From NCBI GenBank assembly GCA_030264375.1, contig JASCQW010000162.1, positions 38,349,430 through 38,407,108 on the forward strand: a stretch of 57,679 bases of DNA, given 5' to 3'. Under the pieces are notes generated by a model. That model was not told the DNA's origin. It worked only from the letters and a program-made list of their open reading frames with translations, and searched no databases. The position numbers and the translations under genes are program-made. Positions 2,046 through 56,106 of the stretch are shown piece after piece. Numbering within the stretch: position 1 is the stretch's first letter; each line of letters begins with the position of its first letter. This DNA is from Carcharhinus longimanus. Taxonomy: Eukaryota.

Positions 2046-2350
2046 AGTAAGAAGTCCCACAACACCAGGTTGAAGTCCAACAGGTTTATTTGGTAGTAAA
2101 CACCACTAGCTTTTGGAGCGCTGCTCCTTTGTCAGGTGAGTGGGGGGTTTTGATCACAAACAGGGCATATAAAGGTGCACACAGTTTATAGAATACTTGT
2201 TTGTGATCAGAACTCCCCACTCACCTGACGAAGGAGCAGCGGTCCGAAAGCTAGTGGCATTTACTACTAAATAAACCTGTTGGACTTTAACCTGGTGTTG
2301 TGAGACTTCTTACTGTGATTATCCCAGTACAATGCTGGCATCTCCACAAG
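2046..2350 (+). mobile_element. Penelope-like element terminus as inverted pair (antisense + sense pLTR) with TSD
   Basis: ~117-bp inverted arms 2046-2162 / 2198-2314, ~35-bp unpaired 3' tail, flanking direct repeat aagattccttag (2036-2047) / aagattcctcag (2351-2362). Confidence 0.8.
2221..2257 (+). ncRNA. Minimal type-I hammerhead ribozyme motif
   Basis: tcac-CTGACGA-a-ggagc agc ggtcc-GAAA-gc-TA-gtgg: intact CUGANGA and GAAA boxes, stem II with one mismatch, AGCU palindrome instead of helix III, UH site, short stem I. Confidence 0.65.
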
Positions 2351-6400: not shown

Positions 6401-6899
6401 TTCTACATGAACCAGTCTTCCCCATCTCTAAGAGATAAAGTAGTTAATGCAAATCATCTAGCAAAAGTGATTTTATTTATTTTGTTGCATGTAACATTAT
6501 CTTTAAATCTAATAAACTTCCTTTTTCTTTGAACCTTTAAAAGCAAACTTTAGCTTACTAAAGGAGAACAGGAACTTTTGAGGTTTAGTTCATTAAATTC
6601 ATTAACCATGCTGTTTAGATCTAGTAGATTTTTCAGTACAACTGCATTCCTAGTATTTCATCGTGTATATACTTTGGTCCAGATCTAGCCTATAGAGAAA
6701 TAGTGAAGTGTTTTATTGCTCATTTGTCTTCATATGGGGAAGAAGTGTAGCTATAGTTCTGTAAACTACAGGAGCTAAAGTAGTTTACTGTTTTATCTTG
6801 GCTACTGCTTAACTGTTTATTCTTAATGAAACAGTGTAGATATAATTTCAGGCACACATCTTGCAGAAATCCAGACACTCTTGGTTAAAGAAGAAATGA

Positions 6900-7204: not shown

Positions 7205-7934
7205 ATGATGAACTCTTTTTAAATTACATGCCAGTTATACATCTGTTGACCTTGAAATGATATTGTTGTAAGTTGTATGCCTGGATGTGATATATTTATT
7301 CATTCAGTGCATGCAAGCTGGATATGATGTTAAACTGTTTGGGCTTTCTAGATTGAACAATTAAATAAATTATACAGTGCAAAAATGAGAAGGAGGTGAA
7401 ATTGGTCAATGCCTCCTGGACTAAAATGGGCTGATAACAAAATGGTAAACCACTTTACAGAACTTCCAATTTTCTTTCCCTGTGATTTGGGAATGTGTAA
7501 CTCATTTATTAACACGACACCAATATTGGGTATTGTAGCAAGCCTGGTGCTTGTACCGCTGGGACTGTTTAGTTTTCTGGATATGCGTTGAGCCCTTTTC
7601 TGAGAATAAAGATATTATCAAATAATGGCTTATGGTCTGGAAAACAAATGTTTCATTAAGGATAAACAGTTAAGTAGTAGCCAAAATTAAACAGTAGATT
7701 AATCTAGCTCCCTATGGGTTACAGAACTGTATCTACACTTCTTCCCCATATGAAGACAAACAAGCAATAAAGCACTTCACTATTTCTCTGTAGGCTAGAT
7801 CTGGATCAAAGTATATATACGATGAAATACTAGAAATGCCGTTATATCCAAAAATCTACGTATCAATCATTACAGCAATAACTGTGTCACAATTCAAACA
7901 AATCCTTTCAGGCACACCATCAATGTTCAATTGA

Positions 7935-10289: not shown

Positions 10290-12000
10290 GAGTGTCACCA
10301 GCTAGGCCAGCATTTTTACCCAACCCGAACTGCCTTTGAGAAAGTGTCTTTTTTTTTAAGTAAGTACACCCATGGTGCTGTTAGTAAAGGAGTTCTAGGA
10401 ATTTGACCTAGTGACAGTGAAGGATCAACAATGGAGTTCCAAGTCAGAATGGTGTGTGGCTTGGAGGGGAACTGGCACGTGGAGGTGTTCACGTGCATCT
10501 ATTGCCTTTTTCCTTCTAACTGGTAGAAGTTGCAGGTTTCAAACGTGTTGTTTAAGCAGCCTTGATGAGTTGCTGCTGTGCATTTTATATGCAGTACATG
10601 TTGCTGCCACTGTATATTGGTGGTGGTGGGAGTGAATGCTTAAGGTGGTGGACGGGATGCCAGTCATGCAGGCTGTGTTGTCCTGCATGGTATCCAACTT
10701 CTTAGGTGTTGTTGGAGCTGCAGTCATCCAGGCAAATGGAGAGTATTCCATCACACTCTAACTTGTGCCTTGTAGATAGGCTTTGGGGAATCAGGTGGTG
10801 AGTTACTTACTGCAGAATTCTAGCCTCTGACCTGCTCTTGCAATCACAGTTTTGATTTGGCTGGTTCTGTTCGGTTTCTGGTCAATGATAATCCCTGGGA
10901 TTATGATGGTGGGAGATTCAGCATTGGTAATGCCATTGAATGTCAAGGAGAGATGGTTGGGTTCTCTCTTGTTGGAGATGATCATTGCCTAGCTTTTGTG
11001 TGGCATGAATGTTGCTTGCCATTTATCAGCCCCAGCTTGAACATTGTCCAGGTCTTGCCACATACGGACACAGCCTCAGTGTCTGAGTCATGAATGGTGC
11101 TGAGCATTGTGAAATCATCAGCCAACATCTTTAATTCTGACTTTATGATGGAGGGTGATCCTTGATGAAGCAACTGAAGATGGTTATGCCTAGGACACTC
11201 TGAGGAATTCCTGCACTGATGTCTTGGGACTGAGATGATTGACCTCAAAACCACAATTGCCATTGTGCTCCATACGATGCCAATCATAGGAGCGCTTCCC
11301 CCAGATTCCCATTGACTCCAGTTTTGCTAGGGCTCCTTGATGCCATACTTGATCAAATGGCCTTGATGTCCAGGGCTGCCACTCTCACCTCACTTCTGGA
11401 ATTCAGCTCTTTTCTCCATGTTTGAACTAAGGCTGTAATAAGATCAGGAGCTGAATGACCCTGGTAGAACCCAGATTTGAGTGTCATTGAGCAGATTATT
11501 CCTTTGCAACTATAGCTTGACAGCACTGCTGATGACCCATTCCATTGCTTTGCTGACAATCGTGAGTAAACTGCTGGGGCAGCAATTAGCTGGGCTGGAT
11601 TTGTCCTGCTTTTTATCTACAGGACATATCCTGGCAATTTTTCACATTGCTGGGTAGATGCCAGTGTTGTAGTTGTACTGGAAGAGCTTGGCTAGGGGTG
11701 CGGCAAGTTCTGGAGCACGTGTCTTCTGTACTATGGTCAGTTTATCATCAGGTCCCTATGCAGCATCCAGTGCCTTCTGCCATTTCTTGATAACACTTTG
11801 AATTGAATCCAGTGATGAAGACTGGCATGTGTGATGCTGGGGATCTCTGGAAGAATAAATCGGTTAGACTAAAACCTGGCGTTGTCAGACTTTTTACTGT
11901 GTTTACGATCTTTGGAAGAGGCAGAAATGGATCATCCACTGAGCACTTCTGGCTGAAGGTGATTTCAAATGTTTCAGCCTTGTTTGTGCTGATGTGCTTG
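10290..12000 (-). mobile_element. Degenerate non-LTR retrotransposon (CR1-group LINE), RT plus 3' end
   Basis: Frameshifted RT motifs across ORFs: GFYQGHSAPDLITAL, VRVAALDIKA, MLADD, LTFNGITNAESPTI, MEYSPFAWMTAAPTTPKKLDTMQD. Confidence 0.85.
11855..11906 (+). mobile_element. 52-bp Penelope-type 3' tail inserted in the LINE, with 13-bp TSD
   Basis: Similar to 2270-2320; flanked by gatctctggaaga (11842-11854) and gatctttggaaga (11907-11919). Confidence 0.7.
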
Positions 12001-13730: not shown

Positions 13731-14732
13731 TCTCTTTTAATCCTTATTGGTTAGGTTGTTATCCATCTATAGATTGCCAGTGGAACATTTTGCTTAGTGT
13801 TACATAGATTTGAAAATATCACATGGATACTTGCATTTAATAGGCTATTATGTATGTAAAATTGTACCAAGTAATAATTAAACAGACAGGAAACCAACCA
13901 AATGGAATCATGATTCTTTTTGCTGTTCTCCAGTTCATTTATCAGAAACCACAGTGGATGAAATTGCAGGGAGAGCTCCCATTGAAATCCACCACAATTA
14001 TTACTGTCAATAACAGAATGCCACTAAGTCTTCAGTTACTCTGGCATACTCCTCCAATAGCTCCTGTAGGAAACTAGGCCAGAACCTTTGCTGTGGCCAT
14101 GACTCAGCTGGTACTGTCTTCATCGGCTCCAAACATGGTTGGTTATCAATATAAAGCTGTGGCAGTGACACCACCCCCTCTCCTCCCCTCCCCCCATCAC
14201 CCCAGTGGGTTCCATGGCTATTGTAAAGACCTGTTTGGAGGCTATTAAGACAAGTCTATGTATTGAGCTGGGGACAAACCTGGCTCAGATTCTAAAATTT
14301 ATTACAATCAAGATGGTACCAATCCTGTGAGCAGGCCAGATTAAAGTTTATATGTGGTTATAAATACTTCTCATCACATTGCTGAGGGGTGATAAAAAGG
14401 TGATTTCAGGTATTTGAATTATAAAGAAATAATCAAGTTTTCCATGTAATTTACATAACCATTTCTGCCTTTCAGTTTAGTTCATTGTCAAAAAGAAACT
14501 TATATTTGTATTAAGAAACAGTCTTGTTGAAAGNNNNNAAGAAAGTCTGTACATTTTATTATGAAATAACTGCATAATCCTGTACTGAATTTATAGGCAG
14601 ACATGTAGGTTTATAAATAAATATCTAGTTTTAAGCAAAGTTTTCGATTTTGATTTCACAAATAAACAAAGACCAGAAAGATTAAATTTGAGTGCAGTTA
14701 ATGATCAAAGTCTCATATATCTGTTCCCCCAG

Positions 14733-14961
14733 TGTCATCTGGTGCAACAGTTGGGACTTGGTCACCACCTGAAGACTCTGAATTTTGTTATTACCATGTT
14801 TGAAATGCTTGCTCCTCAATCAAGTGAAACAGTTGAAGTGACAGACACGTCATTTGATGGAGTGCAAGTCAGAGTGTTTGAATCCAAGAAGAAGGTTGAT
14901 GATGAACTAAAGCGAAGCATTATTTACATTCACGGTGGAGGTTGGGCTTTAGGAAGTGCAA
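14733..14961 (+). CDS. NCEH1: Neutral cholesterol ester hydrolase 1-like (AADACL1/KIAA1363 family), exon 2
   Basis: Acceptor ctgttcccccag|, donor A|gtaagt; 229 nt, phase 0 to 1; encodes CHLVQQLGLGHHL...VTDTSFDGVQVRVF...RSIIYIHGGGWALGSA with the HSL-family HGGG oxyanion motif; closely resembles recalled vertebrate NCEH1. Confidence 0.93.
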
Positions 14962-16794
14962 GTAAGTAAACTGCGAAATGAAATGATATATTTCTTAACC
15001 TTCCTGTTAAATACTTGTACAGCAAATGTTTCATTTAATTTATTGGAGTTTGAAGACAAATAGATAAAGAAGTCTATTTTTGCCAAGTATGCCTTTCCAA
15101 AATAAGTCCTGAAGAGAATATTTCCAACTATGCAGTTCAGAGGAAAGGCTCAACTAATAGCTACTGAGCATGTGCATAAGGAGCTACATCACTAAAATGG
15201 CATTCACTGAAGAGGAGATGAATATGAAGTATCTCAGAGAGAAGCTCCAGTTACATCTTGTTCTTATTTAACCTAATCATTAGCACATAAATAAACCTTT
15301 TGAACAAAAGACCACTACCTCCAGCAAGATCTCTCCTGGAGTAAGAACCCAAAGCTCCCAAGTGTTGCTCTCCATAATAGATGGTGGCAACAGTGATTAC
15401 ACTCAGAGGAACAGTAGAAAATGATTAGAAAATCCTCAGATAACACCCAGAAATAGTGCAGAACAGCAGGTGAAGGACTTCAAGGCCAATCGAGCAACTA
15501 CACAAGAGACAACTAAATAATGAGGGCAACCCAGTGTCTGTAAGATGAGTGGCAGAGAAAATGATAACCTTGAAACAACCTCAGGAAATGGCCACTACTT
15601 TGCCCCTACCAGAATCTAAGGGCCCTAGATAGGCTGAACAATAGTAAAATTGGCGAAGACATTTTACCAGCATCATGAATAAAGAAAACAAAGATTAAGT
15701 CAGCACTTTATCTGGTGTTAGGGGCATGTCAGACTCTGTGCTGGCCAGACAGGGAATGAACTGAGACCCAGCTTCCTCCAAGGATGTCATTCAAGCCATG
15801 GACCTGTAGTTCAGTTTTGACAATAATATCATCATAGAGAAGGGGGGTTGGTGGTCAATAACAAGGCAAAGGGATTGACTCACTCATCAACAAATTGTGC
15901 TGCCAAACCAAATGTTGAGAGCGTGGAACACTAAACGATGACCTGATAGAATAATCTTTGGCTTTTTAGATGACAATCTCTCTGACTTCTTACAATCTCA
16001 AAGATTTGAACTTGAGTAAAACCATACAACTGGCCGAGAGGTCTTCAAGCGCAGTTGTAGCATTGGTATCTCTGTGCCAGAACCTCCAGGTTCAAGTCCT
16101 AGCTCAAATTGTCAAGAGATATATTTCATAGACATCAGTGCTGTTCCCTTCAAACCCTTCATTCACTTCCAGAACAAAGAGGGACTCTGGGTCTAATCAA
16201 CAGGGTCCGTGTGGAAATGTGCTCCGTGGACAGTGTTCCTTTGAAGAAATGGCATAATGAAAATTCCATTCAATCACAGGCTTAGGCTTTGAGTCCCATC
16301 CCATTAGCTTCCTGGTGGGTAGGACCAGCAGTGCATTCAGGAACTGATATCTTGCCCTATCCATCAACCATGCTGTTAGTGGACCAGAGACGCAAAAGCC
16401 TTTCTTCCCATGGACAAGTAAGAATGCATACACAGGAATGGCTCAAAAAACATGATTTCCACACTTGCTATCATTTCATATTTCACACTGGTATTCTATG
16501 GAAGACGTTGGATCTTTGGGACTTGGTGAAAGCAGAATCATTGAAGTACTGACCAAGCATGGCCACATCCACTGATTCCATCAACTAAACAAAAGTTTTG
16601 AACTAACGAACACATTGCCACAGGCAGCTCAGTGATTGCCTCTCTCTGAGGCTCGCTGTAGAATCTGTCCCAGAATGTCTAGGCCACAATGGCCTCCACC
16701 AACCCTTCATAAGCATTGACCAGAAAGTTTGATTAGCTTCACAAAAGAACGTCCAGCTGCTAAGAATGTTTTTTGTTTGGCCTTGTTCTTGCAG

Positions 16795-16864
16795 GAATGC
16801 GATCATATGACCACCTTTGCCGGAAGATGGCAGAAGATATGAATGCTGTTCTTGTCTCTATTGA
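16795..16864 (+). CDS. NCEH1: NCEH1-like exon 3
   Basis: Acceptor ccttgttcttgcag|, donor GA|gtaagt; 70 nt, phase 1 to 2; (R)MRSYDHLCRKMAEDMNAVLVSI(E); phases join exons 2 and 4. Not in the ORF track. Confidence 0.92.
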
Positions 16865-17783
16865 GTAAGTAATTGCAAGCCGACTGCATTATTCTCTTGG
16901 TTGATGCATTTTTAAGATAATTTATTAGGTATTTTGTAGAAAACTTGGAGCTGGCTAAATATTGAAGAATAGATACTGTCAGAATTCAAAATTATTTTGT
17001 GATTAGATTCCATCTGGTTTCCACTTCAGTATTTTCACCCTCATGGAAGAAGATCAGTTAATTCTAACAGCTGTGTTTTTTTTCATTATGTAGTTCCAAG
17101 AGGTTTACTTGTGGCTAGATGCAACTTAACATTTAATGAGGTTTATTTGACCTTGGACTGTCTGATCAAGGATCTGACTTATGGGCCCTGAACCTTTGTT
17201 CTTGGCCATATGCCACTTCTGGCTCTGGAAACCAAGACAGATATTTTCATTCCAGAAGAACCTATTTATCTGCAATAATGGGGTATGAGGGAGAAATTTC
17301 CAATTGACTTCTGGTGTATTGTCAGCGAGGAATGGGGCAAATAACATTAACTCTTTAAGGGCCTCTGATTCAGCTGCAGCAAGAACAGGAAACCCCGATG
17401 AAAGCTCCACTGACACATGCTGTACTCAACAGTGTCAATAAGCCTGCCCATTAATTTGGACCTGTTTATACGCATGCCCTTCCTGTAAAATAGGTGCAAC
17501 AAGATCCAATATCTCTCACAGAAACTTATCAATGAGGAAGAAACAAACCAATGGATGCTTAAAGAAGAAAACTTAGATGTTTATGTCCGAAACTGCACAA
17601 TGATCACTATAAACAATTTTATTTTTAAATTGGATGTAACATTTTGAAAATTTGAATTAACTGTGTATTTAATACAGAATTGCAGTTTTCTCAGCACTGC
17701 GTGACTCAAAAGTATTACATCAAGTCAAGCTTTACAAGTTCAATCTTATTGAAATTAATTACATTATGTGTCCTTGAATTTAG

Positions 17784-17955
17784 ATACCGTCTTGTCCCAG
17801 AGGTTCATTTTCCTGAGCAGTTTAATGATGTTTATAGTGCTACCAAGTATTTTCTACAGCCTGAGATTTTGTCCCAGTATTCCGTGGATCCGAATCGAAT
17901 TGCAATTTCTGGAGACAGCGCTGGAGGAAACCTGGCTGCTGCTGTAACTCAGCAG
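17784..17955 (+). CDS. NCEH1: NCEH1-like exon 4 (catalytic Ser)
   Basis: Acceptor gaatttag|, donor CAG|gtaata; 172 nt, phase 2 to 0; [15 protein letters not shown]...[17 protein letters not shown]; GDSAG nucleophile elbow at 17911-17925. Confidence 0.95.
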
Positions 17956-18339
17956 GTAATATCATTTATTAAAGGTTGGACAAACCATGATGACTTTAAC
18001 AAAATATTAGATGATGACCTCTCACTAATTGGCACAATGCCTCCCAAATTTTGAATTAGAACAAATACTGATATTGAAGAGGAAAGCAGCTCAACATACA
18101 TAACAATGAATGCATATTTGAAGAAAGCTGTTTGCATAAGTTAGAGAGCTATTTAAATTGAACAAATGTTAATGTTTATCCCAAATATGCTGCATTGTTA
18201 TTATTATAACAAAATAGAATAATCATTTGCAGCTTTGAAAAGGCAACGCATTTTTTAAAGGAAATTCAAGGCCTGTAGCAGGTGACAACCCCATTATGAC
18301 TTCAGTGTCATCATTTGGTCTTTCAGCCATTTCTTGGTT

Positions 18340-19085
18340 GGTAACCTCTGAGCCAGAAGGTTCTGGATTCAAATCCCACTCCTTGAAGACAAAGATCTCG
18401 GCTGAAACTCCAATGTAGTACTGAGAGATTGCTGCACTGCCAAAGGTGCTAATAAAAGGACAACAAAAATAGAAAATGGTGGAAGTATGCAATGGGTCTG
18501 ACAGCATCTGTAGAGTGAGGAACAGAGTTAAGTTCTCAGGTCTGTGACCTTTCGTCAGTAAGAAGTCTTGCAACACCATGTTAAAGTCAAATCAGTTTAT
18601 TTGATTGTAATCCCACAAGCTTTCGGAAACGGTGTTCCTTTGTCAGGTGTGCAGAAGGTTCTTCCTCATACCTGACGCAGGAACACCGCTTCCAAAAGCT
18701 TGTGGGATGACTATCAAATAAACTGGTTGGACTTTAACCTGATGTTGTGAGACTTCTTACTATGTTTACCCCAGTCCAACGCTGGCATCTCTACATCATG
18801 ACCTTTCATCAAAACAGAACTTTAGATTTTTTTTGCACCATGTACTGAAAAGATTTCACTGGTTACCTTTCAAAGAAGAATGGGAGACTTATCCCTGGCC
18901 AACATTCATCATTCAATCAACATTCCTTAAAAAAAGATCATCTGGCTCTTTTCAAATTGCTGGTTATGGAATCTTGCCATACCACAGTAGTGGCTAAATG
19001 TCAAAAGGTACTTCATTGGCAGTAAAGAGCTTTTGGATGTCCTTAAGTTGTGAAAAGCATTTATATAAATCCAAGTCTTTTTATC
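18340..19085 (+). mobile_element. DeuSINE-like (SacSINE1-type) element interrupted by nested insertions
   Basis: Head ctctgagccagaaggttctggattcaaatcccactcc, body resumes after ~18820, tail gtaaagagcttttggatgtccttaagttgtgaaaagcatttatataaatccaagtc. Confidence 0.6.
18557..18798 (+). mobile_element. Penelope-like inverted-pair element with 13-bp TSD
   Basis: Inverted arms ~18557-18649 / ~18669-18761, same 3' tail as 2046-2350, TSD tgacctttcgtca (18545-18557) / tgacctttcatca (18799-18811). Confidence 0.8.
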
Positions 19086-19420
19086 TTTTCCAGATAAATT
19101 CAGTTCATCTGTCCATTTTCTGTATTGTAACATGATGTTTAGTCAAATGCTGTATAAATTCTATTATCTAACAGTATTGTGTATATTTTTCCAAATTACT
19201 TAAGCAATACTACTATCAAAGCTGTAAAGGTGAATGATCAATAGTTCACAGAATTGTCATGGTACAGAAGGAGGCCATTTGGCCCATTGTGTCTGCACTG
19301 ACATTTCTGAAAAAACCTCTCTGTTGAATACTGCAAATATTGTCATATGGGTGAAAACTGGTAGCGTCAACTCCCTCAGAAATGTTCTAAACACTTCAAT
19401 TTTTGTTTTATGTTTTGTAG

Positions 19421-20038
19421 CTTGTCATCGACAGAAGCATCAACATCCGACTCAAGTTACAAGCTCTCATTTATCCAGCACTTCAGGCTCTTGATTTCAA
19501 TACTCCGTCCTACCAACAGAATATGGCTACACCTATCTTGTACAAACAGGTCATGGCCCGTTTTTGGCTACAGTATCTGAATGGTGACCTTAGCTTTGTT
19601 CAGGCAATGTTGATCAACAACCACACAGCTTCAAATCTAAGTCAGCTGACATCGATCCGCGATCGCTTAGACTGGACAAACCTTCTACCGCAATCACTTA
19701 TAAAAAATTACAAACCTGTCATCCAGGCGATGGGAAGTCCACAGGTTATACAGGAGTTGCCAGCGCTACTGGACCCAAGAGCAGCTCCATTACTTGCAGA
19801 TGAAAAAATCCTGCAGTTATTACCAAGAGCCTACATCCTGACCTGTGAACATGATGTTCTAAGAGATGATGGAATAATGTATGCAAAGCGTTTAGAAGAT
19901 GCTGGAATAGAAGTGACACTTGACCATTACGAAGATGGATTTCACGGCGCCATGATATTTGTACTACCCCCGACCAACTTTGATGTGGGAAGCAAGATCA
20001 TGAACAATTATATAAACTGGCTAGACAACAATTTGTAA
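19421..20038 (+). CDS. NCEH1: NCEH1-like terminal exon 5
   Basis: Acceptor tgttttgtag|; 618 nt to TAA; [34 protein letters not shown]...[12 protein letters not shown] (catalytic Asp)...EDGFHG (catalytic His)...YINWLDNNL*. Confidence 0.95.
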
Positions 20039-20212
20039 ACCTTTCAGTCAGGGATTGGGAAGTTGCAATAGAAAATGTTAATGCAAGCTATTTGTTTGGA
20101 AAAGACCTATGTATTTATGCAATGCAACAATCCAATGCAAATCTGTGCTATAGAATTACTGAAGCTATTTTGTTAGGCTTGATCAAATTTTAACGTGCAT
20201 TGTCTATACTAC

Positions 20213-33098: not shown

Positions 33099-33235
33099 GT
33101 GGGCCTCTTCCTTCCAGCTTAGCTCCTTTCCCTCATACTAATTTACCCCTTCCAAATTCCTGCTTTCAGACAAGGAATTTGAAAGGGGGAAATTAGTATG
33201 AGAGAAGGGAGCTGAGATGGAAGAAAGAGGCCCAC
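33099..33235. repeat. Long inverted repeat (63-bp arms, 11-nt loop)
   Basis: 33099-33161 vs 33173-33235, 56/63 complementary by manual alignment. Confidence 0.9.
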
Positions 33236-55655: not shown

Positions 55656-55811
55656 CTGCAGAATTATTATGATAATCAGAATGAACAGGAAAGCAACAAG
55701 ATGCAGTTAATTTAATTTATACAGTCATTACCATGAAATGTAAGTTAAAGGATAATAGGTTACAAAATTATAGCAGCTGTGCCCAATATAGACCCTGTTC
55801 TAGACATGGAT

Positions 55812-56106
55812 AAAGTCCTACCAGTTTATTTGATAGTAAGCTCACAAGCTTTCGGGGTTTGCCTCTTTGTCAGGTGAGTAGAGAGTTCTGGTCTCAAACA
55901 GAGCATATAAAAGGCACACATAATTTACAGAATACCGATTAGAATGAGTCTTTACAGCTAACCTGCTATTCAAGTCTTAAAGATGCAGACAATGTGCGTG
56001 GAAATAGCATTAGGCATAGGTTAAAGAGATGTGTATTGTCAGGACAGTAAGTGAAATGTGAGACTTCTTACTGTGTTTACCCCAGTCCAGTGCTGGCATC
56101 TCCACA
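55812..56106. mobile_element. Penelope-like element: long antisense terminus plus short sense tail
   Basis: Homologous to 2070-2195, then switches to tgtgagacttcttactgtgtttaccccagtccagtgctggcatctccaca; hammerhead-like motif on the minus strand at 55841-55878. Confidence 0.75.

Follow-up and report, generated by a model that had tools for sequence, protein, structure and literature searches.

Insertions of endonuclease-bearing (EN+) Penelope-like elements (PLEs), as described in the available parts of PMC3846280 and PMC8557442, consist of an inverted, 5'-truncated pLTR beside a tailed pLTR; one end carries a tail of 30–40 bp, the target-site duplication (TSD) is 8–10 bp long, and the pLTRs contain a TATA box plus an initiator (Inr)-like motif. 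For minimal hammerhead ribozymes, the available portion of PMC4209133 describes a conserved core, a bulged base between positions 9 and 10.1, a G10.1-C11.1 pair, a palindromic 15.2-16.2 segment and covarying families, and already notes opposite-strand pairs of such motifs 100–700 bp apart. For the Anolis Poseidon element PAc, the accessible part of Frangieh et al. 2024 (PMC11167929) reports two adjacent internal reverse-transcription start sites defining the tail, nicking and extension of both strands, and an absence of RNA reads that end where the ribozyme cuts. Non-LTR retrozymes, in the accessible part of bioRxiv 10.64898/2026.07.22.740005, are head-to-tail tandems with a type I hammerhead from PLE pLTRs, and are reported in the one chondrichthyan sampled there.

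The fold-back copy considered here lies at 2036–2359 of the window, a stretch of 57,679 nt of Carcharhinus longimanus (GCA_030264375.1, contig JASCQW010000162.1, forward strand), and its layout of inverted pLTR, tail and TSD is the published Penelope-like insertion layout, down to the TATA plus Inr-like motif. It differs from the published units in that both pLTR copies are cut to ~150 nt, and from A. vaga Pen2a, the ORF of which starts inside the pLTR, in that the ORF of the present family starts right after the tail end. The hammerhead shares the features listed above for PMC4209133, although stem II is shorter (4–5 bp) and firm pairing in stem I is limited to three pairs; the available portion of that source names no cartilaginous fishes among its cases, and its supplementary alignments could hold the window family. 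The three features of PAc named above were all counted as likenesses, whereas PAc belongs to the Poseidon clade without the Cys linker that the window family has, and its ORF starts at stem II rather than, as here, with an ATG ~95 nt below the cut site. With the retrozymes the window copy shares a type I hammerhead from a PLE pLTR, but assignment to them was rejected, because they are head-to-tail tandem units each with a hammerhead, whereas the window copy has a head-to-head layout that puts its two motifs on opposite strands. A MITE or fold-back DNA transposon, with TIRs at both ends and a fixed structure, was also rejected, because the tail lies outside the repeat and the spans of the fold-backs are not fixed.

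The inverted arms (2046–2162 and 2198–2314) are 117 nt each with 91% complementarity, and the unpaired PLE tail (2315–2348, + strand, 34 nt) lies outside them, much as the earlier note had described. The untailed inverted pLTR arm (2046–2197, - strand, 152 nt) has 12 differences from the subfamily majority; its 5' end is at -91 relative to the cut site and its 3' end is 34 nt short of the tail end. Since this left arm is element-derived through 2197, the 35-nt 'loop' is simply the longer 5' reach of the - copy. The tailed pLTR arm (2198–2348, + strand, 151 nt) starts at -56 and has 6 differences from the subfamily majority. The arms meet at 2197/2198, where obvious microhomology is absent. Their nearly equal lengths (151/152) were considered as a possible signal and dismissed as chance, since such equality occurs in 4/42 fold-backs against 3.0 in shuffled pairs. 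The claimed 12-bp TSD proved to be a real duplication with an exact length of 9 bp (2036–2044 and 2351–2359, unstranded); the left copy extends to 2047 with one mismatch, and 11/12 is reached only with the first two bases of the arm counted. A TATA-like box of the pLTR (2166–2173, - strand), for which a promoter role is inferred, is reached by the left arm only and stands 32 nt above the Inr-like A at 2141. Both elements are intact in that arm, antisense, and face the first exon of the host gene.

The tailed arm contains a minimal type I hammerhead (2222–2256, + strand) with a 3-bp stem I, bulged A2232, the G2233-C2245 pair and palindromic AGCU. Its core (CTGACGA 2225–2231, GAAA 2246–2249, GC-TA 2250–2253; predicted cut after 2253) is the sole strict-core match in the window with both strands scanned. 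The core is intact, as the earlier note had it, but the fourth pair of stem II is broken (G2236 opposite G2242, where the family has C or T), and the motif folds no better than its shuffles. The counterpart in the - arm (2104–2138, - strand) has a fully paired stem II and a core decayed by two G>A changes, at 2130 and 2114, both at CpG, as had been proposed. A scan of the window with Rfam gave no hammerhead match at E ≤ 1, and only unrelated hairpins below the gathering score.

Three further family copies are present in the window. A second fold-back (18557–18795, unstranded), of subfamily C, spans 239 bp with a 13-bp TSD containing one mismatch, and both its cores are decayed. A third (55808–56106, unstranded) has a - arm of ~250 nt, in which the core is decayed, and a tailed + arm of 50 nt that lacks a hammerhead. 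An untailed 53-nt fragment without a hammerhead (11854–11906, + strand) was absent from the earlier note. The stem II pairings previously listed for the related motifs (18613–18705, 55841–55878) require correction: 'ggagc/gctcc' belongs to the decayed - arm, and 'gagg/cccc' at 55841–55878 includes an A-C mismatch. With this mismatch and with all three cores of these copies decayed, covariation is not demonstrated by the window copies alone. Elsewhere in the window, a hairpin with 63-bp arms (33099–33235; 89%) is unmatched by the PLE models and has Rfam matches below the gathering score, and inverted repeats of ~210 bp around 815 bp (6624–6833 and 7649–7859) resemble a non-autonomous DNA transposon.

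The identity of the family was derived from longer genomic copies. A genome search with the + arm, in which the best 40 of 2515 candidates were scored, led to 30 fetched loci, two of which read upstream into coding sequence (L003 into reverse transcriptase (RT), L020 into the endonuclease region). A search with the RT piece scored at least 150 matches among 5162 candidates. The 21 RT loci used here are L031 plus 20 picked mostly for long listed frames or top scores. The terminal unit (pLTR end) follows RT on the same strand in 14 of them, which bears out the claimed Penelope-type origin and its link to an RT/GIY-YIG-type ORF; the other seven lack a downstream end, and all 21 contain N-runs. 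An inverted untailed arm is found upstream in 6/21. One locus (L095) reads pLTR-ORF-pLTR and another (L083) has a 5' pLTR running into the ORF; in both, the first ATG of the ORF directly follows the tail end, 2 nt past the matching position. In three other copies (L239, L127, L104), sense pieces of the N-terminal part of the ORF immediately precede the 5' side of truncated pLTR arms, a junction suggestive of template jumping.

The Pfam match of the ORF to RVT_1 (E 1.9e-6, 28.2 bits) is just below the cut-off of 29.6. No Pfam match to GIY-YIG was found in the ORF, and the endonuclease call comes from inspection of motifs: V-V-Y..C..C..YIG, with two Cys between the GIY- and YIG-like motifs, in L020, L091 and L095, and a C-x4-C-x2-C linker between RT and EN in L003, L020 and L095. 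In the available part of PMC8557442, a CX2-5CxxC linker marks Neptune/Nematis PLEs and is absent in Penelope/Poseidon, and a Cys pair between the GIY- and YIG-like motifs is likewise a Neptune/Nematis mark. By these motifs, rather than by an RT tree, the family is classed as a Neptune-type EN+ PLE. The separate non-coding, ribozyme-bearing family that had been proposed is thus not upheld, because a protein-coding PLE has these arms as its 3' end (pLTR), and to annotate the window copy as a new ribozyme family would be a mistake. A sample of 80 stretches, placed at round coordinates on large contigs (697,204 non-N bases), contained 58 matches; an earlier run over 40 of these stretches gave 26 matches against 0 in reversed sequence. 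Scaled up, there are roughly 2x10^5 end segments per genome, with arms counted singly.

The majority sequences of all four subfamilies contain the full CUGANGA/GAAA core, the bulged A, G10.1-C11.1 and AGCU, so that both the minimal type I assignment and the expectation of such a core in a consensus are confirmed. Intact cores number 22, 20, 14 and 11 among the top 30 copies of subfamilies A, B, D and C, respectively, and because they are so common in the family, the intact + core shows no selection on the window copy. For the stem statistics, 174 motifs were picked by a pattern tolerating CpG decay. In these, stem II pairs 2–4 are 85–87% Watson-Crick, against 52–62% in shuffled pairs. The test for double changes used 60 of the 174 motifs together with the + arm (61 sequences): the three stem II pairs gave 38 double-changed cells against 13.3 expected (0/500 shuffles), and slid controls were lower. 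In stem I, on the other hand, no double change was found in the three proximal pairs of the 61 sequences, and the fourth is unpaired in 33/61. Stem covariation as claimed therefore stands at the family level for stem II pairs 2–4 and fails for stem I. Behind the covariation counts stand about three stem types across the four subfamilies, and so only a few master-lineage events. It appears that the ribozyme fold is kept in master elements, while genomic copies decay at CpG.

An extended helix I beyond the 4-nt bulge seemed to covary in the subfamily majorities; it was rejected over the 174 motifs, in which the pair is mixed (CG 63, CA 25, TA 22, GC 21, TC 10) and the next pairs fail. In subfamily D (L103–L131), stem II has 4 bp and closes a short loop that is rich in purines and ends in AA; in L110 and L112, a variant has G-C in place of A-U.

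An inverted arm lies upstream in 49 of the 120 top copies of the four subfamilies, and these fold-backs span 183–1473 bp. After three were dropped for N or edge, 46 fold-backs were scored for TSDs; scores of at least 9 were found in 24, against 0.3% of 2070 mismatched flank pairs, and the other 22 have no clear TSD. Together with the 34-nt tail, these figures agree with the 30–40-bp tail, inverted truncated neighbour and variable TSD of EN+ PLEs. We assign a probability of about 0.92 to the reading that the window copy is a 5'-truncated insertion of a Neptune-type PLE, with two pLTR ends head to head and a TSD of ~10 bp, in which both target strands likely primed reverse transcription and the hammerhead is predicted to be silent. 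In such an insertion, the element's endonuclease would make staggered nicks ~10 bp apart. One nick would prime cDNA at the tail end, just before the ATG of the ORF, and the other ~33 nt further 5', by analogy with the two adjacent internal start sites of PAc; untailed arms stop ~33 nt short of the tail end. The two short cDNAs would stop at -91 and -56 relative to the cut site and then be joined at 2197/2198. The idea of two primings comes from in vitro work on another clade, in the available part of PMC11167929, and is proposed here by analogy.

Two other origins of the fold-backs may be weighed against this one. They could be a non-autonomous family resembling MITEs or retrozymes, with a hairpin RNA that the PLE protein itself mobilises, as the TSDs flanking whole fold-backs, the large excess of short copies over long ones and the correlation of arm ends (rho 0.60) would allow. 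A mobile unit should not, however, vary in span and junction offset from copy to copy as these do, and a by-product of integration is therefore the best reading of the fold-back. Moreover, none of the 29 other top copies shares the arm geometry of the window copy, pieces of the ORF are enclosed in many fold-backs, and head-to-tail tandems of ribozyme units are not seen in the copies examined, all of which makes such a family very improbable. The same correlation bears on snap-back self-priming of one cDNA in place of two primings, a route proposed in the available part of PMC3846280. Arm ends lie within 10 nt of each other in 20/42 directly joined fold-backs against 9.2 in shuffled pairs, and within 5 nt in 15/42 against 4.8. 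The 20/42 agreement is more than two independently stopping cDNAs would give, and the two stops are therefore often coupled, by a shared RNA end or by snap-back. In 12/42, however, including the window copy, the untailed arm extends beyond the 5' end of the tailed arm by more than 10 nt, and because of this longer reach it cannot be a copy of the tail-primed cDNA. In two subfamily A fold-backs (L026, L028), in addition, the arms carry different compensatory stem II variants (pair 4 G-C versus A-U), which speaks against snap-back and suggests two RNA templates or later conversion. Self-priming is thus rather unlikely as a substitute for two primings, and a two-primed PLE insertion is preferred.

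The insertion lies within a gene for an alpha/beta-hydrolase (Pfam Abhydrolase_3, E 8e-20), which we take to be NCEH1, an NCEH1/AADAC-type esterase. Its exon 1 is ~6.5 kb before the window (L261:3393–3534, + strand) and exon 2 starts near 14732, also on the + strand; the copy is therefore in intron 1 with the tailed + arm in sense, which agrees with the position suggested earlier. The esterase exons within the window extend over 14732–20035, and intron 1 is ~21 kb long. In the host pre-mRNA, transcription would reach the antisense arm before the + arm, and the two would pair. The fold of the copy in its context is a single long hairpin (-226 kcal/mol, z -23) in which the whole motif is paired and, by this prediction, buried. 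The two motifs are on opposite strands, so that each transcript has one. A search of the + strand between exon 1 and window position 20100 yielded no further strict core. Single minimal hammerheads gave no cleavage as monomers in the available portion of PMC4209133, and the anole motif, in the accessible part of PMC11167929, requires protein for cleavage and is dispensable for insertion in vitro. The hammerhead of the window copy, as modelled, is likely silent.

That the esterase gene has co-opted the copy, as an active ribozyme in its intron or as a regulatory hairpin, might be argued from its intact core, its sense position in intron 1 and the occurrence of the 3' junction of the insertion also in sequence run X23, labelled as another organism, with 3 differences in 325 nt. 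It is hardly to be believed, however, in view of the frequency of intact cores (22/30 top copies), the broken stem II pair, a fold no better than that of shuffles, the lack of a same-strand partner in the interval scanned, the predicted masking and the inactive monomers. No empty site was found among the joints listed in four sequence runs, the contigs of which break at repeats.

The 5' ends of the copies were surveyed by searches with only the part 3' of the cut site, in four subfamilies. The 115 loci without the query copies were reduced to 88 copies by dropping 26 that abut N or an edge and one duplicate. Only 4/88 have their 5' end no more than 3 nt from the cut site (0.007 per nt at risk), while 25 end at -25..-4 (0.018), 35 at -47..-26 (0.044), and 7 at -120..-48 (0.007). 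None of 300 constant-rate simulations matched the peak at -47..-26. It is shared by solo copies (11/26), and because untailed arms pile up at the same place, the pile-up depends on position and not on cDNA length. The window copy itself is outside this class, since both its arms reach above -35.

TATA boxes and BBCABW initiators are established promoter consensus motifs. In all four subfamily majorities, a TATA-like box at -67/-66 precedes a BBCABW initiator-like A at -34 to -36 by 31–32 nt. Several points weigh against reading the pile-up as a transcription start: the peak is 20 nt wide, ends from local alignment are accurate to a few bases, and subfamily C peaks at -47..-43, above its Inr. 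A TSD abuts the tailed arm in only 11 of the 221 copies checked for a cap-derived extra G, and no cap-G was shown. In 12 of the 26 dropped loci (L233–L356), the N-run is met at -2..+10 of the cut site, and cut-site ends could therefore be hidden in gaps; such N-runs could be an artefact of the search or of the assembly, or could conceal perfect hairpins with the AGCT palindrome at their centre. If the eight dropped copies within 3 nt are counted as true ends, a rough hand estimate puts the rate at ~0.017 per nt, which does not reach that of the peak. The pile-up may instead be caused at the edge of the ribozyme by stalling of the reverse transcriptase or by a microhomology hot spot. Within the titles and abstract openings covered, no link is reported between PLE truncation and TATA/initiator motifs or the transcription start; in the available parts of the sources, the D. 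virilis promoter is TATA-less (PMC2377424) and A. vaga pLTRs carry TATA and Inr (PMC3846280).

The window copy is an ordinary fossil of a very abundant retrotransposon, with a layout and a ribozyme motif already known. The ends that avoid the cut site and pile up at the predicted start bear on the role of the PLE hammerhead and on which RNA is the template. A tentative proposal, which we regard as somewhat more doubtful than not, is that the hammerhead lies at the very 5' end of the PLE mRNA, that many stubs are run-off cDNAs, internally primed in the 5' pLTR and ending at the transcription start, and that ribozyme-cut RNA is hardly ever a template. If so, the ~2x10^5 stubs would map the promoter of the element, and cleavage would be opposed to transposition or separate from it, for instance through loss of the cap when the mRNA is cut 35 nt from its start.
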